In this document: positions 3,690 through 15,086 of the stretch, in pieces | How positions within the stretch are numbered: position 1 is the first letter of the stretch | Layout: each line of letters begins with the position of its first letter | Source of the DNA: Acidobacteriota bacterium | Lineage (GTDB): Bacteria; Acidobacteriota; Blastocatellia; UBA7656 | Length of the DNA: 64,000 bases | Direction: 5' to 3' | NCBI GenBank assembly: GCA_040754075.1 | Contig: JBFMDH010000003.1 | Span: 14,307 to 78,306 of the forward strand | Position numbers and translations under genes: made by a program | Notes under the pieces: model-generated | Told to the model about the DNA's origin: nothing | Seen by the model: only the letters and a program-made list of their open reading frames with translations | Databases searched by the model: none

Positions 3690-4658
3690 TTAGTTGCTCA
3701 AATATTTTTTGAACCAGTTTGACACTCGTTGGTCTCTTTCAATTCGATTATTCGATAAGATGTGATTATCGCCCGCATAGATCATTAACTCATACGGCTT
3801 ACCCAGTTTCTGTAATTGTTCAGCCATCAAAAGCGATTGCAGCGGACTCACCAGAGAATCCGCGCCGCCGTGCATGATTAAAACCGGAGTGTCGATTTTA
3901 TCCGCCCAACGAATTGCCGAACGTTGATAAAAAATTTCCGGTTTCTTCTGCTCGAAATCCGGCCAGATTTGTTTTGCGACGGCGCTCGAATTAGGCGAGG
4001 CGGTGAGAAAGGCTTCCATATCGGTGAATGCGCCAAAGACCGCTGCCGCCTTTAGCGGAAAGCGATTGCGAAGGGCTTGATAGGTCATCATGCCGCCGCG
4101 CGATTCACCATACATAAATAGGTTCTCCGTATCGACAAAGTTGAGTTGCTTTGCCAGTTGAGCCGTATTCATCAAATCATTCATATCCGCGCCGCCCATT
4201 TCATCCTTGCCTTCGCCGCCATCACTTTGCCGGTAAAGCGGGGCGATGATGGCGAACCCTTCGCGTGCCAGCCGATGAAAAGAGACGATCAATTCGGCAG
4301 CAATATCCCGGCGAATGAAACTGCCGCGATTAAAAATGATGGTTGGCAATTTTTGCTCGGTTAGCTTTTGTGGTCGGTAGACATAGGCGGTGATTTTCAA
4401 GCGATCGCTTAGGTATTTGATTTTTTGAAACTCAAATCGCCGGTCGCGAACCGCCGTTTCATATTCACTTTTGGTGCAATATCTTGCAACATCGGAGGTT
4501 TTTTCCGCTTCCTCATAAGTCGGGAAGGTGTAATTCACACGTTCGATGATTTCTCCATCCGCTGAACGTGGTTGACGGCTCGAACTGTTTGAGAATGTCG
4601 TAGCGTCAAAAAAAATAAGTGCGATGAGGCAGAAAAATAAAAATCGCTGGTGGTGCAT
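3690..4658 (-). CDS. Secreted alpha/beta hydrolase, prolyl oligopeptidase (S9) family peptidase or esterase
   Basis: N-terminal signal peptide, nucleophile elbow YGESRGG (GxSxG), and a downstream IMHGGADSLV...D...H arrangement consistent with an S9 Ser-Asp-His triad. Confidence 0.65.
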   Translation of the reverse strand: MHHQRFLFFCLIALIFFDATTFSNSSSRQPRSADGEIIERVNYTFPTYEEAEKTSDVARYCTKSEYETAVRDRRFEFQKIKYLSDRLKITAYVYRPQKLTEQKLPTIIFNRGSFIRRDIAAELIVSFHRLAREGFAIIAPLYRQSDGGEGKDEMGGADMNDLMNTAQLAKQLNFVDTENLFMYGESRGGMMTYQALRNRFPLKAAAVFGAFTDMEAFLTASPNSSAVAKQIWPDFEQKKPEIFYQRSAIRWADKIDTPVLIMHGGADSLVSPLQSLLMAEQLQKLGKPYELMIYAGDNHILSNNRIERDQRVSNWFKKYLSN

Positions 4659-4915: not shown

Positions 4916-5350
4916 TCAGCTAATGGCTGCCAAATTCATCTGCTCAAGAGTACGCTTTAACCGGTCAATCTCTATTTCCAATTGCTCAAATAATTCTGCT
5001 GCTTGTTCGCTTTCACCTCTGGCACCGATTTCTTCCAAACGTCGCGCCGCTTCATAAGCGCGTGGGGCGTAAAGCTCGGCAAGCGAACCTTTCAATTTAT
5101 GCGTCTTTTCAGCGATTTTTTTACTATCGGCGGCTATTACACCGACGCGGATTTCCTGCAAAACAGGCTCATACCCTTGCAGAAATATATCAATGATTTC
5201 TCCGAGAAAATCTTCATCGCCCGCCAAGTTATCGAGCAGCGCTTCGAGATTGAATATCTGGTCGCAAGCAATCACTTCGGTTGGCTGAGAAACGCTTCCA
5301 TTAACGGCAGCAGGTATGGGGCGTTCGGAATGGGAAATTACTTCATTCAT
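4916..5350 (-). CDS. Histidine phosphotransfer (Hpt) domain protein
   Basis: Carries the canonical Hpt motif THKLKGSLAEL (HxxKG). A GGAGAAG SD lies 6 nt upstream of the second ATG. Stand-alone 144-aa protein. Confidence 0.65.
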   Translation of the reverse strand: MNEVISHSERPIPAAVNGSVSQPTEVIACDQIFNLEALLDNLAGDEDFLGEIIDIFLQGYEPVLQEIRVGVIAADSKKIAEKTHKLKGSLAELYAPRAYEAARRLEEIGARGESEQAAELFEQLEIEIDRLKRTLEQMNLAAIS

Positions 5351-5613
5351 GGTCTTCTCCAATCCACTGAATACAACGGCGTGCTTGACACACTAATGCC
5401 CGGTTCACTCACCGGTTTTAAATTTTGTGCGGAAGGAGAAGTTGACAGTAATTTTTCTGAGCAAGGAAGAAGTTTGTAAAACACCTCTAATCTAATTAAT
5501 CAACTCTTCGGGGTCAATACTTTTACCTGACTCATTTGGTTTGTGTAGGAAGCTCATTGACAGTCCTGCCGGTTAATGAAAAACCAACGGCTACAAACCG
5601 CTTCCCGCTGCTG

Positions 5614-8541
5614 TTACTGCGATACCCAGCCTTCGATTTTTCTCACCACAGGCAACATCTGCGGTGGGTCATAATTGGTCATTATAATCACCGTATAACC
5701 GCTTTCAGGAAACATGCTGAGACTTGAAGCAATGCCCGGTGCGCCGCCGTTATGTCCGAAGGCGCGTTTGCCATTGACCCGCATATCGCCAAATCCATAA
5801 GCGTATCTGGCATCGCCCCCGCCCATTGCAACTTTTCCGGTTGTAAACAGCTCTGTCAGTTTCGCGCTCAACAGTTTATTGGCGGTGAGCGCACTGGCGA
5901 ATTTCAACAAATCTTCCGGCGTTGAATAACCACCGCCCGCAGGTCCCCCGCGATTTGGACGCGAATCGCTATTCGCTTTGCGCATGGTCAGGCGTTCGCC
6001 TTCGTTGTCGCTCATAAGCGTGTAGCCCATCGCCATATTCGGGGTATTGGCGGTCATTGCAAAACAATCGCTACCTGTCATCCCAGCAGGTTTATAAATA
6101 TGCTCACGCACATAATCGAAATAATTTTGTCCCGATACTTTTTCGATAATTGCGCCTAACACGATAAAGCCCGAATTGCTGTACGCGAAACGCGCGCCGG
6201 GTTCAAACCGCAACGGTTCATCGGCAAAGAGCGCCAGATAATCCGCTACGGTTTTAATCTGCGCGCGCCGCTCATCGAATTTTTTATTCCAGTAAGAGCC
6301 AAGCCCCGATGTATGGGTGAGCAAATGATGAATCGTCACTTTGTCGCGCACATCAGGGTTGGGATAATCGGGCAGATATTTTCCGACCTTATCATCAAGC
6401 GCGAGTTTTCCGGCTTCAACGAGTTGTCCAATGGATACAGCGGTAAACATTTTATTCATCGAACCGAGATTGAATTTGGTATCCACGCGATTGGGCGTAC
6501 TGGTAGATTTCACCGCCATTCCGTAAGCTTTTTTGAAAATCGCTTTGCCGTCTTTGGCAATCAACGCGACGCCGGAAAATTTATCGGCGGCAGCCTGCGC
6601 ATCGAGAAACTTTTCAATCTCTGCGAGCATTTCGGACTGAGTCAATTTTTTTGCAGGGGTCGCGGGACGATCAGGTTTACCCGTCGCCGTTTCGTTGCCG
6701 TCGCTCTCAGTTGCCGGTTGCACCTGAATCATATCAACGGCGTGCGGCGGCGTTGGTTGCACCTGTAGGGTGAGGTTGAGTAGTCGTCGGTCTTTTTGGG
6801 TTTGAATCTGTGCAGTGATTTCCAAATCCGAAGAACTCACGACGCGATGAACTTTCACGCCACCGCTCTGGTTATAAAAATCCATATCTTTTTCGGCGAT
6901 TTCTATACCATCGCCGCGTTCGCGATGAAACTGTTCCATAGTTTTCAAATCGCCCGAATTGAGGGCTTTTACAAACGCCGCAAAAGTTTTTCCCGCAGGT
7001 GTATCGGGCAACTTCACTTCATCGTTTGAGGCATTCGATTGAGCCGTTGCGCCGACGTTTGCCGGAGTTGAAGCCGGGCGGGCGCGAATATCCATAATCT
7101 GATGCGGCGGGTTGGGCGCAACTTCAATGGCAAAAGTTATCCAGTTGTTATCCTTCTTTTTCTGCGCCAGCACTTCGATACCGGTCGCTGAAGAACTGAC
7201 TACTTTTGCGATTTTCAAGCCGCCATTTGCGGCAAAAAAGCCCATGTCTTCCTGCGCGTTGTCCGGGTTGCCGCCATTTGCCTGATGAAATTTTTTCAAC
7301 TCATCGAGGCTTCCGGTATTGAAAGCTTTTAAGAATGCGGCAAGCGTTTTTCCGGCAGGGGTGTCCGGCAATTTCACTTCATCACTTTGTGCGTTGACTT
7401 GATTGACTGGTGAAGATGTCGCAGTTTGCGGCGCATCAAGTTCGCGTTGCAATGAAGCCGCGAGTCCGTTGAGTTGCTGTTTTCTCTGGTTATCATTGGT
7501 TTTTGCCGCGATATTTTTGAGCGCCGCGACCTGCGCGACCTTCAACGCCTGCTCGGCTGGCACTTCAACATCGGGTTTAACGCCAGTGCCTTCCCAGTTG
7601 GTTTTGGTGATGGGATTGATGGCGCGGCCTGCGGGAACGCCGATGCCGAAATGTTCATTGATGCGACGAAAATCTACAGGGTGCGCGCCGCCGCCAGTGG
7701 TTTCACCGACGATGGTGGCGCGTTTCAGATTTTTCAAATTGTAGGTGAACTCTTCGGCTGCCGAAAAGGTGCGGCGACTGGTCAACACATAAACCTCGCG
7801 CTTTTCGCCATAGCGTTTGCCGCCGAGTTGTTCACGTGTCCAATGTTCAGTGGTTTTATCGGTTGGTCGCCAGTAAATATCATTGAGGTGAGTGCGTTTA
7901 TCGAATAAATAGCTGCAAATCAAGGCGACCATTTGCGGCTGCCCGCCGCCGTTTTGCCGCACATCGAAAATCAATGCCTCGGTGTTGGCTAAAAAATTCA
8001 TCGCCGCAGCTAAGGTTTCCGCGCCCCACTCGGCTTCAACAAACCCGCGAAAGTCGATGTAGCCGATGTTGCCTTCCAATCGTTCGACCTTTTGAAATCC
8101 GAAATTGTTAAAGGCGACCTGGGCGCGCTCCTGTTCAATGTCTGCTTTGCTCGGCTCTTTCAAATCGCGAAACGCTACTGGGCGAAAGACGACTCTCAGG
8201 TGTTTATCGTGACTGACTTCCTGCAAATGATTGGTCAGCGTCACTGCCAGCGCCGCAGGGTTGGTGATGGCATCGTATTCTTTGCGCTGCATACGTTCAC
8301 GAATCGCCGCTTCCATTTTTTTTGCGACTTCGGGAAAAACATAGGCGGCGTTTAACTGCTTCAATGCGCCTTCGATAACCTGCACTCGCGCGGCGGCGTC
8401 AAGTTGCGGCGCAGTCTGCTGCGCAATCGTGTTTGTGACTAAAGCATTGAATAAAACCGCCGCGATAGTCATTGCACTGATATTGATTCGCAGAATATTT
8501 AAAAGTTGTTTCAGGGGTTTCATTATTGATTTACCTCTCAA
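5614..8541 (-). CDS. Secreted multidomain fusion: S41 (tail-specific/IRBP-like) peptidase, two copies of a ~100-aa repeat domain, and a C-terminal beta-lactamase-fold serine hydrolase
   Basis: Signal peptide present. S41 motifs GNIGYIDFRGF and LIFDVRQNGGG, with a TSRRTFSAAEEF serine region. Two internal repeats each start DEVKLPDTPAGKT(L/F)AAF. The C-terminal domain has SMNK (SxxK), YSN (YxN) and GHNGG motifs of class-C beta-lactamase/PBP-like hydrolases. Confidence 0.75.
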   Translation of the reverse strand: MRGKSIMKPLKQLLNILRINISAMTIAAVLFNALVTNTIAQQTAPQLDAAARVQVIEGALKQLNAAYVFPEVAKKMEAAIRERMQRKEYDAITNPAALAVTLTNHLQEVSHDKHLRVVFRPVAFRDLKEPSKADIEQERAQVAFNNFGFQKVERLEGNIGYIDFRGFVEAEWGAETLAAAMNFLANTEALIFDVRQNGGGQPQMVALICSYLFDKRTHLNDIYWRPTDKTTEHWTREQLGGKRYGEKREVYVLTSRRTFSAAEEFTYNLKNLKRATIVGETTGGGAHPVDFRRINEHFGIGVPAGRAINPITKTNWEGTGVKPDVEVPAEQALKVAQVAALKNIAAKTNDNQRKQQLNGLAASLQRELDAPQTATSSPVNQVNAQSDEVKLPDTPAGKTLAAFLKAFNTGSLDELKKFHQANGGNPDNAQEDMGFFAANGGLKIAKVVSSSATGIEVLAQKKKDNNWITFAIEVAPNPPHQIMDIRARPASTPANVGATAQSNASNDEVKLPDTPAGKTFAAFVKALNSGDLKTMEQFHRERGDGIEIAEKDMDFYNQSGGVKVHRVVSSSDLEITAQIQTQKDRRLLNLTLQVQPTPPHAVDMIQVQPATESDGNETATGKPDRPATPAKKLTQSEMLAEIEKFLDAQAAADKFSGVALIAKDGKAIFKKAYGMAVKSTSTPNRVDTKFNLGSMNKMFTAVSIGQLVEAGKLALDDKVGKYLPDYPNPDVRDKVTIHHLLTHTSGLGSYWNKKFDERRAQIKTVADYLALFADEPLRFEPGARFAYSNSGFIVLGAIIEKVSGQNYFDYVREHIYKPAGMTGSDCFAMTANTPNMAMGYTLMSDNEGERLTMRKANSDSRPNRGGPAGGGYSTPEDLLKFASALTANKLLSAKLTELFTTGKVAMGGGDARYAYGFGDMRVNGKRAFGHNGGAPGIASSLSMFPESGYTVIIMTNYDPPQMLPVVRKIEGWVSQ

Positions 8542-8634
8542 ATGGCTGATGCGCCTTCGCGAAATTCATTAGAAGGCGCGCGAGTCAAAAAATGATTGGC
8601 TGGGGGAAACTAATGTTTAATCAACTTAGCATAC

Positions 8635-9063
8635 TTACTGAGCCGGTTGCGCCTGAATGCTCATAATACCGTGTGGCGCATTGCTGTCGACTTCGATGGC
8701 GAAATTCAACCGCCGTGCATCGCTTTTTGCTTCGACCAAAACTTCCAATGCATAGTCCGAAGATTTGTTGACTTTGATAACTTTCAACCCTCCGGTCTGT
8801 TTATACGCGCCCCAATCCTGTTCGGCATTATCGGGATTGCCTTTGCGTTCCTGATGAAATTTGCGCATCACATTGATGTCACCGGAATTGAATGCCTGCA
8901 AAAATGCCGCGAAGGTTTTACCCGCAGGCGTATCCGGCAACTTCACCTCATCGGTGGCTGGCGCAGCTGTTTTCGCATCACCTGATGAGGCTTGCGCGAA
9001 ATCGGTGTTAATGAACATCACCGCGAAAATCGCCATAAGTAGCAAGGTTGAAATTATCTTCAT
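8635..9063 (-). CDS. Secreted single-domain paralog of the repeat domain of the upstream fusion protein (possibly DUF3471-like)
   Basis: The ATG at 9061-9063 is preceded by GGAG. Signal peptide MKIISTLLLMAIFAVMFINTDFAQA, then DEVKLPDTPAGKTFAAFLQAFNSGD...PHGIMSIQAQP, which is clearly homologous to both internal repeats of the 5614..8541 protein. Confidence 0.65.
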   Translation of the reverse strand: MKIISTLLLMAIFAVMFINTDFAQASSGDAKTAAPATDEVKLPDTPAGKTFAAFLQAFNSGDINVMRKFHQERKGNPDNAEQDWGAYKQTGGLKVIKVNKSSDYALEVLVEAKSDARRLNFAIEVDSNAPHGIMSIQAQPAQ

Positions 9064-9091: not shown

Positions 9092-11722
9092 TTAAAAACT
9101 GAATCGGATGCCGCTTTCGATTCTGCGTCCGGGCAGAGCGGCTGTTGCCTGCCCGTAAAAAGGCGATGTCTGAACGCCTGTAAAATTGATGCGATTGGGG
9201 TGATTGAAAATGTTGTAAGCCTGAACGTAGAGTTCACCGCGCCAGCGTTTGTTGATGCCGCCGGTGCCACCCATACCGCCAAGGATGTCGCTATCATTTG
9301 AGCGAATGATTTTTACCTGGGGACCGCCTGCGGCTTCTTTCGGTTTGCCGAATCCGAATCCCCAACCAAGGCGCATGCCCATATCGAAACGCGCCGCGCC
9401 ACGGGCGCTGTTGCGACCGACGCTCGCAGGACGGTCGTTGCTTACGCTGTCGCCGTTATTATCAAAGCCTGTGGTGATGTTGTAAGGCGCAGCGGAACTT
9501 GCCTGCAAAATCGTGCCGATGCGAATCGCGCCGGGAAATTGATAATTGAACATCGCGAACAGATGATGCCTTGTATCATAAGCCGCCGGTCCGCGTTCGG
9601 CGCGCAAATCCGCATTGTTTGCCGGGAGGCTGAACGGGCTATCGGTTTCGTTTATCGCTTTCATATAAAAATAACCGAAAGTGGCAAACAAATATCTTTG
9701 CGGCGGGCGCGTGAAATTCATGTTGACGTTGACGCCAAATTGTTGCCGCGAAGCGTACGCCGTTGATTCGACCTGCGTGATGTTGCCAAATTGCGCGTCG
9801 GGGCGAACGCCATTCACGGGCGCATTGAGATTATGTCCGCGCAAAGTGTGAACGCCGCGTTGATAGGAATAATTGGCGTTGAGGTTGATGGTTGGCGCAA
9901 GCTGTCTTTGTAAGCCAACCGAAAACTGCTCAAGGTAAGGCAGATTCATTTCCGGGTCAGCAACAATTTTACTTGCCGGTAAAATGATTTGCGCGCCGCC
10001 GGTCAACGGATTTGGGAAGCCCGGATTTTGCACAATCAAATCGCGTTGCCGTGTACCATCGACGCGCAGAATCTGTTCGGTGATTTCCGAACCGACCCAG
10101 CCGTAAAAAATTCCCGCCCCGGCGCGAAACGTGGTCTTGCCGTCTTTGAATGGCGACCACGCGATACCGAGGCGCGGCGCGAAATTGTTTTTATCCCGGA
10201 CGTTGTTCTGCCATTCGTAGCGCAAGCCCAGACTGAGTGACAGGCTTTTATGCAATTTAAAATCGTCCTGTAAATAAGCGCCAAACTGATGCTGCGAAAA
10301 TTCCACACGCGGGTCGCCCGAACGCTTGGAAAAGGTCGTCGGTCGCCCGGCGCGAAAATCATCAAGGCTTGCAAAGATGAATGTGCCATTGGCATTGACG
10401 CGCTCATTGCTCTGATAATTGCCGAATTCATAGAGCACGCCGGTGCGCATGGTGTGTTTGCCGATGACGAAATCGATGTTGTCGGCGACTTCCCACTCGA
10501 AGACCTCGCGCGTCCCGGAAATCTGCGCGCCGCCGCTACCAAAGGCATTCAACACCTGAATGGTCGGCGCTTGTGAAGCCGACGATTTATCAATCGCTTG
10601 CCAGCGCGCCTGAAAGAGAATTTCATTGACCAGTTTTTTACCAACCGCGCCGGTGTCTGCAAATCTGAACAGATGTTCGACGGTGTCATTGGTGTAGGCG
10701 CGTTCCGGCAAATCGAAATCGCCGACGCCGAGGTTATCAAGTCGTGAAGCGTTGCGCTGATATTCGGTTCTCAAAGTATGGGTTTTATTGAGCGCGTGTT
10801 CGATTCTTGCGGAAAAATTCAAAGTCTTTGACGGGCGACGCGCGACATCGTTGAACGCGCCGTCGGGTAAAGCGGCAACAATGGTTTTCGATTCATAAGC
10901 GTTATTGCCATCGGCATTCAAAAACAGCGACGTGCGATTTTTCCAGAGCGGTCCGTCGAGTGAAAACCCGAAGCGGCGAAATTGTTCGGGGGCGCGAAAC
11001 GGCGCAAAGGCGTTGCGCGCATTTAACGACTCATCGCGAAATCCGAAATTCATAGAGCCGTGCCAGTTGTTGACGCCGGGTTTGGTAAGGATGTCAACGG
11101 TGATGAAATCTGCTTCATGATTGTCCGCCGAATAAGGATTCATGCGAAAGCGGATTTCGCGGATTTGCGATTTGGGCGGTAATTTCCCGCCGCGAAAGCC
11201 GTTGACTTTAAAACTCGCGCCCGGTCCTGCCATATTGCGTATAGCCTGCTCGAATTCTTCGGGGTCGTCCGGCAGTTGCGAAATTTGCTCTGCGGTTAAA
11301 ACATTGGTGAAAGCGTTTTTGCCATTATCGAGACCTTTTTCCTGGGCGCTCTGGGCGATGGTGACATTTTCTTTTACACCTTCGATTTCCATTTGCACTT
11401 CAATTTTATTGTTACCTGATTTCAAAGATTTATCTTTGATTTCCCGGGTGATGAAACCGGCGACCGACACGCGCAATTGAAAGCCAGCGGTGGCAAGGCG
11501 CAGGAAAGTGGCTTCGCCGCGCTCGTTGGTTTGCGCGGTGTGCTCTTTGCCATCGCTGGTTTGCAATTGCAATGTCGCGGCGACAATCGCTGCGCCTGTC
11601 GGGTCAACCACGGTGATACGCAAGCTGGCATCGTTTTTTGATTGCGCGGGCGCATTCAAAATGGCAATGGCGAATATGAGAAGCAGACTGATGATTTGCG
11701 CAAAGCGTTTTGTTTTTAGCAT
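9092..11722 (-). CDS. TonB-dependent outer-membrane receptor with N-terminal carboxypeptidase-regulatory-like domain
   Basis: Signal peptide [29 protein letters not shown]-terminal [22 protein letters not shown]...ERGEATF Cna-B/CarD-like fold, a plug-like region, a long beta-rich body, and a C-terminal aromatic residue (…GIRFSF). Confidence 0.75.
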
Positions 11723-11851: not shown

Positions 11852-12775
11852 TTACTTTTTGAATTTTTCAGCTTTCAGTGGCGGATTGATTTTGAACTTG
11901 GCGATTTCAGTCTCTTCGCTGACCGCGCCATTGGTGGCGCGGGTAATTTTGTGCGGCAACCAGATGCCATCAACCGCGCGATAATCGGTGTAGAAAATCT
12001 GTATCTCGATTTCGTTGGGTTTTTCCGGGGTGGCTTTAGCGGCGTCGGCTTGTTTTTCAATCTCTTTGGCTCGTTTATGCGCTTCTTCCTGACTGCCGGC
12101 TTGGAAGGATTCGGTTCGCACCATGATTTTTGGAGCGAAACCGCGATAACTGAGCATCAACGGTTGATGGGTTTTCTGGTCTAGAAACAGTCGCGCTGCA
12201 AAGCCATCCGCGCCGCGGGCTTCGATGACATCGGCTTTGCCTTCGGGGGCTTCGGCTTCGCCCGCGTAGGTGAATTCGATTTGGTAAGCATCGGGAACCG
12301 TAAGCAACCAGGCTAAAAGATTTCGCGCATAATCATTTTTCATGACGCGCAGTCGCTGCGCTTTAGCTTTTTCATCATCACTACCAGGGCGACGCATGAC
12401 GACCACGCCGCTACCCGAAGAACTCTGGTCTTCCAGCAGTTCGTTGCCATTAAATCCGCCGATGCGGGTGATGTGTGCTGCGCCGCCCATCATCGTCAGG
12501 TTTTCGGTGAGTTTGAATTTATCCGGGAACAAAAATTCCATTTCAAACTCGCCTTCCATTTCCGGGGCATTGGGCGCGAGAATGCGCCGGAATTTCCCGG
12601 TGCAGGAAAGGCTTTGGACGGCTTTCAATTTGGCTTCCCCGCCGAGCGCCTGCCGCGCCTGGGTGAGCAATTCCTGAGCGCGCGCTTTATCGCCGTCACT
12701 GGCGAGCAAAATCGGATTGGACGCGCCGGTAATCGCAAAAATAACAATAAGAATCAATTCAATCATCTTGTGCAT
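11852..12775 (-). CDS. Secreted hypothetical protein (LolA-like / outer-membrane lipoprotein-sorting-like, tentative)
   Basis: Signal peptide MHKMIELILIVIFAITGASNPILLA. No catalytic motifs recognised. The family assignment is tentative. Confidence 0.4.
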   Translation of the reverse strand: MHKMIELILIVIFAITGASNPILLASDGDKARAQELLTQARQALGGEAKLKAVQSLSCTGKFRRILAPNAPEMEGEFEMEFLFPDKFKLTENLTMMGGAAHITRIGGFNGNELLEDQSSSGSGVVVMRRPGSDDEKAKAQRLRVMKNDYARNLLAWLLTVPDAYQIEFTYAGEAEAPEGKADVIEARGADGFAARLFLDQKTHQPLMLSYRGFAPKIMVRTESFQAGSQEEAHKRAKEIEKQADAAKATPEKPNEIEIQIFYTDYRAVDGIWLPHKITRATNGAVSEETEIAKFKINPPLKAEKFKK

Positions 12776-13202: not shown

Positions 13203-13380
13203 TGCAAAATCTTTTGGTTCAAACTCTCAATAACGTTGACCTATTACCTCCAAGACCGGCGGTCTAAATGATGACTTAAACCAGATTTGATTGTTCAATT
13301 ATTCAGTGCCATTTTGCATCGTCAGTTTCAGGTTTCCCGTCTACTAATCGCGTAAACCGATTTTGAAAGGAGCAGGCATT

Positions 13381-14010
13381 ATGGCGAACTTTACGAAATC
13401 TGTTATCAGCGTTCCGGTGTTTGGAAAAACCACGATCACCATGCTTGGCGGCGGCCCGCCTCCGGCGAATCTGGCGCTTGATATTAGACCGGATAATCCC
13501 GGTTTGGTTTCTGCAACCCGGACAGCCACCCGATTGGGGCCCGAATATGATTGGGAGATTACCGGTAAATTTCCCGGAAAGACCCTGCTGCAAGCCCTCA
13601 TTCCCGGAACCGCGAGTACCTATTCCGCTCCCCTTGAAGTAGTGGTAACCGGGCGCATCACGATTAAATTTTCAGCCAATGGCGAAGGAACCATGACCTG
13701 TGTGGGCTTAGGAAATTTCAAGGTGTTAGGTCAACCGGGAAGACAATACCCCAAAGATATAACCGTTGATCCGAATGCCGACCCCACCGTCAAAAAGACG
13801 CTTCATCATAGTAAAGAATTTAATGTCGATATGCCCTTTGCAATACGAATCTGGGGACAGATGGGAATTTTTATTCACGAATTTCCTGATAACCTGAGCG
13901 AAAATGGCGGGCCCTCTGCCGGGTGTATTCACGTTGGCAAACCCAATTCAAAGCGCGTCTTCGACTATATCGTTACCCGAACGCGCATTACCATCGAATA
14001 CCCTTGGTGA
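13381..14010 (+). CDS. L,D-transpeptidase-like (YkuD-fold) domain protein
   Basis: AGGAG SD upstream of the ATG at 13381. The C-terminal GIFIHEFPDNLSENGGPSAGCIHVGKPN resembles the YkuD catalytic H...(S/T)HGC(I/V)R motif, with substitutions. Confidence 0.5.
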   Translation: MANFTKSVISVPVFGKTTITMLGGGPPPANLALDIRPDNPGLVSATRTATRLGPEYDWEITGKFPGKTLLQALIPGTASTYSAPLEVVVTGRITIKFSANGEGTMTCVGLGNFKVLGQPGRQYPKDITVDPNADPTVKKTLHHSKEFNVDMPFAIRIWGQMGIFIHEFPDNLSENGGPSAGCIHVGKPNSKRVFDYIVTRTRITIEYPW

Positions 14011-14348
14011 ATCGTAGAAGGAATGAACGGTTGTGAGACTATCCGTTGCTTGAGATAGCCAAACATCTGCCTATGTTGGCAGCACAATCGCCGGACTCAA
14101 GGAAAGCGCCGAGGGAAAAGTTCAGCCCTTGATGAAAACAAATCTGTCTTTGAGCAGCAAAACGGCAAAGGGCTGATTCCCGATAAATGAGGTTGAAAAG
14201 TTGCAATATGGGCAGCAAGCCGGGCGGCGCAATTTACGACTCAAACGCTAAAACCGAACCTCCTCCAATGGTAAATAATATTGAGGAACCGGGTAGTGAT
14301 TAGGGTTCTCAATGATTATCCGTATTGCCCGGTTTTCTCTACCTCGGT

Positions 14349-15086
14349 CTATCTTGACGCCGCCAGTGTCGCAATGGAGTTGCAGGCGCAGGCTTCGACG
14401 CCGTAGTTAAACCCATTTCTGAAAGCCGCTGTGCGTTTTTGCGAAGTGCCGTGGGCGTTTTTTGCATAGATGCTGATGGCGGTGTGGTCACCGGCTTCGA
14501 TGAGTGAACTGATGGCTTTCGGAATATCATTTGTCTCAAGACGTGGCGTGCGACTTTCGCTTCGGGCAAAGGCTCCGGCAAAACAATCGGCTTTCAACTC
14601 TTTTTCAATGTCGTAACGATTCGCAGAGATGCGCCCTTGTCTTTCAAGCAGGGTTTGCACCGCGTGTCCCCATTCGTGGGCGAGAATCGTCACTACCGCA
14701 AAATCGCCATGCTTTGCCATCTGAGCGTAAAAGAAATTGTAGTCATAATAAATCGCATGGGCTGACGGAATGTACAGGGCGTTGCGCAACGGTTGGCTGG
14801 CGCGATAGACCGTGGGCGCAGTGTAACGCAAACCGTTGGCGGCGAAAACCTCGCGCCAGTAAGCGTTGATGTAAAAGCCGGCGGTTCTCACCAGTTCATC
14901 AACTTCCCAGTTGGTCGGCGCAGCCATTTCGGTTGTGAAATTGAAATCGGCAGACGAAAAAGCGTAAACCGCAACCGGCTCAATCGGTCTGGTTGAAAAT
15001 GGCGCACCGGTTGACGCAAGACTGAACAGGGCGAATAAACCAACCAACGCATAAAGCACAACATTTCGTTTCACTCGTTTAATCAT
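14349..15086 (-). CDS. Putative neutral zinc metallopeptidase (YpfJ-like)
   Basis: HEWGH (HExxH) motif. N-terminal membrane anchor or signal MIKRVKRNVVLYALVGLFALFSLA. Confidence 0.6.
   Translation of the reverse strand: MIKRVKRNVVLYALVGLFALFSLASTGAPFSTRPIEPVAVYAFSSADFNFTTEMAAPTNWEVDELVRTAGFYINAYWREVFAANGLRYTAPTVYRASQPLRNALYIPSAHAIYYDYNFFYAQMAKHGDFAVVTILAHEWGHAVQTLLERQGRISANRYDIEKELKADCFAGAFARSESRTPRLETNDIPKAISSLIEAGDHTAISIYAKNAHGTSQKRTAAFRNGFNYGVEACACNSIATLAASR

Follow-up and report, generated by a model that had tools for sequence, protein, structure and literature searches.

An exported fusion of an IRBP-type S41 module, duplicated NTF2-like domains and a PF00144 hydrolase in Blastocatellia: a candidate dual serine peptidase encoded beside a receptor-like barrel and a LolA-like protein

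In a 64,000-nucleotide (nt) stretch of an Acidobacteriota genome of the Blastocatellia (GenBank assembly GCA_040754075.1, contig JBFMDH010000003.1, forward-strand positions 14,307 to 78,306), which we refer to as the window, we identified a fusion gene whose product combines two different serine-hydrolase folds in one chain with an export signal. From the N- to the C-terminus the product consists of a signal peptide, an S41 module of the type found in IRBP (retinol-binding protein 3), two copies of an NTF2-like domain, and a PF00144 (S12-like) hydrolase. Each part is a member of a known superfamily, so we do not regard the fusion as a new kind of system; it is an uncharacterized, lineage-specific variant assembled from known parts. 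The explanation we tentatively favor, with a probability of roughly 45%, is that the fusion would act as a periplasmic dual serine peptidase processing imported peptide-like substrates for nutrition, a proposal drawn from sequence comparison and from analogy with solved enzymes. A preliminary description of the window, made from its sequence alone, had already proposed two serine-hydrolase folds bridged by a duplicated domain in a single exported chain, and both Pfam and our repeat alignment agree with that layout. The gene, its parts and the adjacent paralog are listed here in window coordinates.

5614..8523, minus strand: fusion gene, 969 amino acids (aa) plus stop (open reading frame, translation, Pfam)
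8422..8523, minus strand: predicted Sec signal peptide, residues 1-34 (MKPLKQLLNILRINISAMTIAAVLFNALVTNTIA, followed by QQ; read from sequence)
7561..8385, minus strand: IRBP-type S41 module, Peptidase_S41_N plus Peptidase_S41, residues 47-321 (Pfam, PDB search)
7762-7764, minus strand: codon of Ser254, nucleophile of the S41 module (codon check)
7069..7383, minus strand: NTF2-like copy 1, residues 381-485 (repeat alignment, family hidden Markov model [HMM])
6709..7023, minus strand: NTF2-like copy 2, residues 501-605 (repeat alignment, family HMM, DNA repeat family)
5659..6609, minus strand: PF00144 beta-lactamase-fold (S12-like) serine hydrolase, residues 639-955 (Pfam, 228 bits, cut-off 27)
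6460-6462, minus strand: codon of Ser688 in the S12 motif S688-M-N-K691; the other S12 motifs are Y781-S-N783 and H924-N-G926 (codon check)
8635..9063, minus strand: stand-alone paralog, a 142-aa "hypothetical protein" with a signal peptide and one NTF2-like domain (8638-8952)

The preliminary description had given the exported product as 975 residues. An open reading frame of that extent is indeed listed, from a TTG at 8541 to 5614 on the minus strand, and it does carry an export signal; translation, however, probably begins at the ATG at 8523, preceded by GAGAGG at a distance of 8 nt, and this gives a product of 969 rather than 975 residues. A homolog search showed this product to be 100% identical to the NCBI entry "MAG: serine hydrolase [Acidobacteriota bacterium]". 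From the signal peptide we infer Sec export, and the location of the protein is probably periplasmic; on reading the N-terminus we saw neither a lipobox Cys nor a recognizable export tag. The motifs that had first suggested the two hydrolases (GNIGYIDFRGF and LIFDVRQNGGG, and SMNK and YSN) were all present in the translation. Pfam matched Peptidase_S41_N at residues 47-114, Peptidase_S41 at 152-321 and Beta-lactamase (PF00144) at 639-955, leaving residues 322-638 without any match.

The S41 module scored well above cut-off with both of its Pfam models (PF03572, 90.6 bits against 24; PF11918, 39.8 bits against 26.6), and in a PDB sequence search residues ~50-335 matched single IRBP modules (PF11918 plus PF03572; PDB 7jti, 9frx, 1j7x and 4lur) end to end with convincing E-values (8e-46, and 5e-58 with a profile). 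[quoted passage not shown] IRBP itself has four tandem modules that bind retinoids, most of which have lost the Ser, whereas the fusion has one module, joined to NTF2-like domains and an S12 hydrolase, and keeps the nucleophile Ser as do the bacterial homologs. Bacterial IRBP homologs are regarded as peptidases in which the catalytic Ser is retained (PMC10120077).

Alignment with hhalign put Ser254 opposite Ser452 of the E. coli Prc precursor (Ser430 of the mature protein), and Gly279 at the position of the Prc general base, Lys455; in the S41A proteases this base lies 25 residues after the Ser. The fusion thus has in common with E. coli Prc/Tsp, CtpA and CtpB the catalytic-domain fold, the nucleophile and the conserved NGGG loop, but those enzymes carry a PDZ domain and use a Ser/Lys dyad, whereas the fusion has no PDZ family among its Pfam matches and has replaced the Lys with Gly. 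To gauge conservation we used 98 fusion proteins and 52 species-level S41 domains, across which Ser254, Asp106, His108, Arg189, Asn191, His212, Asn214, Glu257, Glu258, Trp310 and Glu311 were invariant, the Lys position was Gly in all 52 species, and His281 was present in 43 of the 52. Tricorn protease and CPAF use a Ser/His/Glu set with the Glu ~58 residues after the Ser, and in the fusion Glu311 lies 57 residues after Ser254; in a PDB profile search CPAF matched the S41 profile over positions 204-285, the Ser-Glu region (E-value 4e-5). To judge from its residues, the S41 module looks like an enzyme with a non-canonical base.

The best solved relative of the C-terminal head is the Bacillus halodurans penicillin-binding protein (PBP) 3tg9 (E-value 6e-46), and others include the alkaline D-peptidase 4y7p, Pab87 (2qmi), DD-carboxypeptidase, LACTB, EstB, R61 and ClbP. 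The SMNK, YSN and HNG boxes all aligned to those of solved relatives, D-peptidases such as 4y7p as well as 3tg9, with E-values from 1e-24 to 6e-46, corresponding to the SxxK, YxN and HxG motifs common to the MEROPS S12-type (PF00144) enzymes such as B. cereus 4y7p, Streptomyces R61, Pyrococcus abyssi Pab87 ("CubicO", 2qmi) and 3tg9. Ser688, Lys691, Tyr781 and Asn783 were invariant in 98 of 98 fusions. In the solved S12 enzymes the accessory domains are, for example in Pab87, C-terminal beta-barrel domains, whereas that of the fusion is N-terminal and NTF2-like. The Joint Genome Institute (JGI) label for the family is "CubicO group peptidase"; NCBIfam gave no name for any component, every score being far below cut-off. 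On alignment, then, the S41 nucleophile and the S12 SxxK, YxN and HxG boxes are present and the S41A Lys is not.

The domain between the two heads is an uncatalogued one. As the preliminary description had it, two copies of ~100 residues lie within the fusion and a third follows the signal peptide of the adjacent gene; alignment and a family HMM (about 1e-36 for each copy) both support this, and the HMM found no further copy within the window. The three copies, of 105 aa each, all begin with an identical DEVKLPDTPAGKT and are 46-57% identical in protein and 64-71% identical in DNA. With DNA identity at merely 64-71% they are old paralogs, and we rejected recent gene conversion, recent duplication and assembly artefact as sources of the repetition.

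The suggestion that the repeat might be DUF3471 had to be dropped, as this family matched neither the whole protein (E-value ≤0.01) nor the three isolated repeats (E-value ≤10) in Pfam. Nor is the repeat PDZ, which had no Pfam support, the fold being NTF2-like. An AlphaFold2 model of the stand-alone copy, built from a 27-sequence alignment, was of very high confidence (pLDDT 95.9) and showed three helices followed by a four-stranded sheet, with the three-helix cone on a curved antiparallel sheet that is typical of an NTF2-like fold. The only Pfam trace from the repeats themselves was MecA_N, an NTF2-like family, to repeat 2 (E-value 0.03, not significant). Among 47 diverse relatives, 10 matched ORF_12_N (PF18042) weakly and a few matched SnoaL_2, SnoaL or DUF4440; the window's own three copies reached no ORF_12_N score at E-value ≤10. 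A profile of the 47 sequences found nothing significant in PDB, the best match being a SnoaL cyclase (E-value 0.039). On the model and these comparisons the repeat is best placed as a distinct family of the NTF2-like superfamily without a Pfam or NCBIfam model, which we designated PDTPAG, with ORF_12_N as its closest, remote, catalogued relative.

The PDTPAG family is large. When 1.84 billion representative proteins were searched exhaustively with a profile, 1,936 clusters (50% identity) were recovered at E-value ≤1e-3 and 663 at ≤1e-10. In 124 of the 144 best new representatives the domain lay ≤70 residues from the N-terminus, i.e., directly after the signal peptide; 78 of the 144 were shorter than 200 aa and 22 had two or more copies. 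Half of 60 longer relatives carried PF00144 (30) and 11 carried S41. The domain is a mobile accessory module of exported hydrolases.

The fusion had been called unusual, a description that does not hold within its lineage, where our first homolog search found more than 100 clusters (90% identity) with Peptidase_S41_N, Peptidase_S41 and Beta-lactamase, nearly all from Blastocatellia/Acidobacteriota metagenome bins and mostly with one repeat. We scored the 120 listed proteins of this search with our own HMMs and obtained the following architectures (BLAC, beta-lactamase-fold domain).

S41-NTF2-BLAC: 93 of 120
S41-NTF2-NTF2-BLAC: 14 of 120
S41-BLAC: 2 of 120
BLAC-S41: 2 of 120
NTF2-BLAC-S41: 1 of 120
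BLAC-NTF2-S41: 1 of 120
NTF2-S41-NTF2-BLAC: 1 of 120
S41-NTF2: 1 of 120
Vertebrate IRBP, four or five tandem S41 modules, no NTF2 or BLAC: 5 of 120

Beyond the fusion, in a survey with one genome per species, S41 occurred by itself in many Pyrinomonadaceae and NTF2-BLAC by itself in several phyla (Zixibacteria, Ignavibacteria, Planctomycetota, Myxococcota and Gemmatimonadota), while six genomes had NTF2-S41. In a Zixibacteria metagenome-assembled genome (locus L022, 9878-12750) the modules are split, an S41 gene being followed directly by an NTF2-BLAC gene. The modules have been fused repeatedly and independently. Since the same modules are joined in several orders and also occur as adjacent split genes, these arrangements are classic evidence of functional coupling, i.e., that S41, NTF2 and BLAC would act together, and as gene architectures they show an NTF2 module that appears to serve both enzymes, not just the beta-lactamase fold. 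Two further loci of this kind are an NTF2-BLAC-S41 gene among Planctomycete-type neighbors (PSCyt/PSD1/DUF1501; L086, 7001-9538) and a BLAC-S41 gene without NTF2 (L087, 7001-9109).

The fusion also has conserved genomic partners. The features concerned are the following.

9092..11722, minus strand: outer-membrane barrel, 876 aa, CarboxypepD_reg plus OMP_b-brl_4 plus TonB_dep_Rec_b-barrel (Pfam)
11852..12775, minus strand: exported 307-aa protein designated U300, predicted LolA/LolB-superfamily fold, conserved partner of the fusion
8551..8579, minus strand: intergenic hairpin GCGCCTTC / GAAGGCGC, 8 base pairs, GC-rich, 13-nt loop, no U-tract (read from sequence)
5586..5602, minus strand: terminator-like hairpin plus T-run, 12 nt past the fusion stop codon (consensus scan, sequence)

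The barrel scored 225 bits with PF25183 and 38 bits with PF00593 (cut-off 27), and its C-terminus (...MRFSF) is a typical outer-membrane beta-signal. The subgroup of Acidobacterial "TonB-dependent receptors" to which it belongs is structurally uncharted. U300 had no Pfam match and has at least 656 homologs; its predicted fold is LolA/LolB/DUF1329-like, the model showing a beta-barrel that is not closed and is covered by a helical lid. Proteins of the DUF1329 family are partners of DUF1302 barrels; compared with such LolA/LolB-superfamily partners of barrels (DUF1329, PDB 4z48; 3bk5), U300 differs in lacking sequence-level membership and in pairing with a TonB-receptor-like barrel and a hydrolase.

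The barrel and U300 flank the fusion in the window, as do orthologs of the barrel (55-70% identity) and of U300 (39-67% identity) at six other loci (L002, L003, L004, L005, L012 and L085), in the order U300-barrel-[NTF2]-fusion or U300-[NTF2]-fusion-barrel, and at L011 both accompany an S41-NTF2 protein. Homolog listings suggested many more pairings of the fusion with barrel and U300. We thus recognize, from gene order and homology, what appears to be a conserved Blastocatellia operon comprising the LolA-like protein, the TonB-receptor-like barrel, in some cases the stand-alone NTF2 gene, and, as last gene, the fusion. The cluster as first described consisted of the receptor, the paralog, the fusion, an Hpt gene, an S9 peptidase gene and a TPR gene; all of these are co-directional as stated, on the minus strand, but the conserved set is U300, barrel, (NTF2) and fusion, and U300 had been left out altogether. 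The hairpin at 5586..5602 is the probable end of the operon. The stand-alone NTF2 gene and the fusion are 111 nt apart, and the hairpin at 8551..8579 in this spacer could determine how strongly each is expressed relative to the other. Divergently upstream of U300 at three loci (L003, 608-3296; L004, 1519-4780; L085, 962-3677) we saw genes for a HisKA/HATPase sensor kinase and an OmpR-type response regulator, which may regulate the operon; no such pair adjoins the operon in the window.

From these components we infer the following scheme of what the enzyme does and to which substrate, where it resides, which way transport runs and what the NTF2 copies contribute. The barrel would admit a peptide-like substrate, which the LolA-like and NTF2 proteins would bind or chaperone, and the two active sites would then degrade it in sequence, for nutrition: the first head as an IRBP-type S41 peptidase with Ser254 as nucleophile and a non-canonical general base, and the second as an S12-type (PF00144) hydrolase of the penicilloyl-serine-transferase fold with intact SxxK, YxN and HxG. 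Given the D-peptidase affinities of the S12 head and the lipid-binding character of three of the folds, the substrate plausibly contains D-amino acids and/or a hydrophobic moiety, e.g., peptidoglycan stem peptides, lipopeptides or necromass peptides.

For the NTF2 copy that abuts the S12 domain there is a solved precedent in ORF12/Cpe of the Streptomyces clavuligerus clavulanic-acid cluster (PDB 2xep; Pfam ORF_12_N followed by a beta-lactamase-like domain), in which an NTF2-like domain precedes a beta-lactamase fold. The Cpe N-domain contributes residues to the walls of the active-site pocket and is needed in vivo (PMC6478378). By this analogy the abutting copy probably caps or extends the substrate pocket. 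Cpe differs in being cytoplasmic, with a single N-domain, a class-A-like catalytic domain, no S41 and a place in a biosynthetic cluster, whereas the hydrolase of the fusion is class-C/S12-like and its NTF2 domain is duplicated and also encoded alone. NTF2 folds commonly dimerize, so the additional copies, whether within the fusion or supplied by the stand-alone gene, might pair with the abutting copy; alternatively they would hold ligand. MecA_N of the PBP2a-type class B PBPs is likewise an NTF2-like domain ahead of a penicilloyl-serine-transferase fold, but with a different class of catalytic domain, a membrane-anchored context and, as noted, no significant match to our repeats.

Several observations weigh against this scheme. 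With the canonical Lys missing in all homologs, S41 activity would need an alternative, unproven base. The HxG box was kept in 28 of 98 fusions, the window's protein included; the other 70 lacked a ~25-residue segment (window residues ~897-925) including this KTG-equivalent box, and the two subgroups may differ in S12 chemistry. The barrel had no Plug domain at E-value ≤10 in Pfam and no sequence match to solved structures in PDB, even with a 5-sequence profile, so that import is assumed. Neither barrel nor U300 was present at two fusion loci (L001 and L006), and the stand-alone NTF2 gene, which adjoins the fusion in the window and at three other loci (L001, L002 and L085), is missing beside it at L003, L004, L005 and L012. 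The occurrence of the NTF2 domain joined to S41 alone, moreover, means that it is not simply a lid for the S12 domain.

The affinities of the S12 head would also suit envelope housekeeping. The fusion would then act on peptidoglycan or envelope proteins of the cell itself; its S12 part would serve as a DD-carboxy/endopeptidase like AmpH or PBP4b, and its S41 part would regulate cell-wall hydrolases in the manner of Prc/CtpA. In NCBIfam the S12 part was most similar to PBP4B, AmpH and D-aminopeptidase, R61 DD-peptidase and DD-carboxypeptidase are among its solved relatives, the S41 fold is common to Prc and CtpB, and a YkuD-type L,D-transpeptidase gene (13363-14010, plus strand) lies 600 nt upstream of the operon. 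However, those NCBIfam scores were far under cut-off (e.g., 90 versus 385 bits), the fusion lacks both the PDZ domain and the catalytic Lys used by Prc/Ctp enzymes, the YkuD gene was absent at the other loci examined, and the family, mainly confined to Blastocatellia, goes together with a receptor-like barrel and a LolA-like protein rather than with cell-wall genes; we therefore think such a role unlikely. Equally doubtful to us is a function in detoxification or catabolism of non-ribosomal (lipo)peptides, in which the LolA-like, NTF2 and IRBP-like parts would bind the hydrophobic part of the ligand and the S12 part would cleave at D-residues. D-stereospecific peptidases of the S12 fold do inactivate non-ribosomal peptides, ClbP and an alkaline D-peptidase are among the solved relatives, and the LolA/LolB and DUF1329 fold of U300, the NTF2 fold and the homology to IRBP are all associated with lipid, steroid or retinoid binding. 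This argument is wholly one of fold analogy, though, NTF2 and LolA folds having non-lipid roles as well; no biosynthetic or resistance genes lie nearby, and the idea overlaps with nutritional peptide processing instead of excluding it.

The S41 module might instead have no catalytic function and, like its vertebrate counterpart in IRBP, serve for binding or as a scaffold, presenting ligand to a single active S12/esterase head. The loss of the general-base Lys in every member and the closeness to IRBP, a non-enzyme, speak for this, but most IRBP modules have lost the Ser, whereas here Ser254 and its polar set (all the invariant residues given above except Trp310) are unchanged in 52 species and the CPAF match to the profile covers the Ser-Glu region; on balance we consider a purely binding role improbable. 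Less probable still is a reversed role of the barrel and the LolA-like protein, in which they would carry the hydrolase out of the cell or onto its surface instead of taking up substrate. Proteins of the LolA type ferry cargo through the periplasm to the outer membrane, and the barrel's lack of a plug match and of similarity to solved TonB-dependent transporters would fit such a role; against it, the TonB_dep_Rec_b-barrel score exceeds cut-off (38 versus 27 bits), an N-terminal CarboxypepD_reg domain is characteristic of barrels of the receptor type, and the fusion has no lipobox or recognizable export tag. As to antibiotic resistance, the second head had at first been described as a class-C beta-lactamase/PBP-like domain, of which the PF00144 fold and the intact motifs were borne out. 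The class C beta-lactamase model (NCBIfam NF033085) reached 72.1 bits against a cut-off of 415, a weak similarity, and the nearest solved structures are D-peptidases and PBPs, not AmpC, making a resistance enzyme very improbable. A peptide or cell-wall-fragment processing role, as originally proposed, remains the most reasonable reading of the fusion, its activity being predicted from sequence.

A more far-reaching version of the nutritional scheme, which we regard as speculative and rather unlikely in its entirety, would make this bacterial sister family of IRBP part of a dedicated outer-membrane-to-periplasm pathway for hydrophobic D-residue peptides. In it the LolA-like, NTF2-like and IRBP-like folds would pass the ligand to two serine-hydrolase sites, the S41 base would be a residue other than Lys, and PDTPAG would be a new, widespread substrate-capture or dimerization module. 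Were this true, hydrophobic-ligand binding would predate the transfer of the IRBP gene family into vertebrates.

Literature searches found nothing on the PDTPAG family, its S41/S12 fusions or the Blastocatellia operon with a LolA-like protein and a barrel, and all three appear undescribed so far. The analysis defines an uncatalogued NTF2-like accessory domain (~1,900 clusters at 50% identity) that recurs both on exported S12/S41 hydrolases and stand-alone, and it links IRBP-type S41 peptidases and PF00144 hydrolases as probable co-workers through repeated fusions and split genes. It also supplies a first picture of the genomic surroundings in which bacterial relatives of vertebrate IRBP are encoded, and the operon with its barrel and LolA-like protein offers a testable candidate for peptide scavenging by abundant soil oligotrophs.

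We rejected the Hpt-domain gene (4916-5362, minus strand), the S9 peptidase gene (3690-4658, minus strand) and the TPR gene as parts of the system, as the first two were absent from all other loci and the TPR gene recurred only in L001 and L002, which are closely related syntenic loci. In L002 no gene separates the fusion from the TPR gene; the Hpt and S9 genes, each with a gap of ~250 nt on its upstream side, therefore look as if they had been inserted locally between the two. A putative neutral Zn-metallopeptidase gene (14349-15086, minus strand) upstream of the operon was, like the YkuD gene, not seen in the other loci examined. The plus strand also encodes a HerA/FtsK-like ATPase (42-1436) and, syntenic with L002 and unrelated to the fusion, a protein with a STAS domain (1513-1860) and the membrane protein YdjM (1927-2514).

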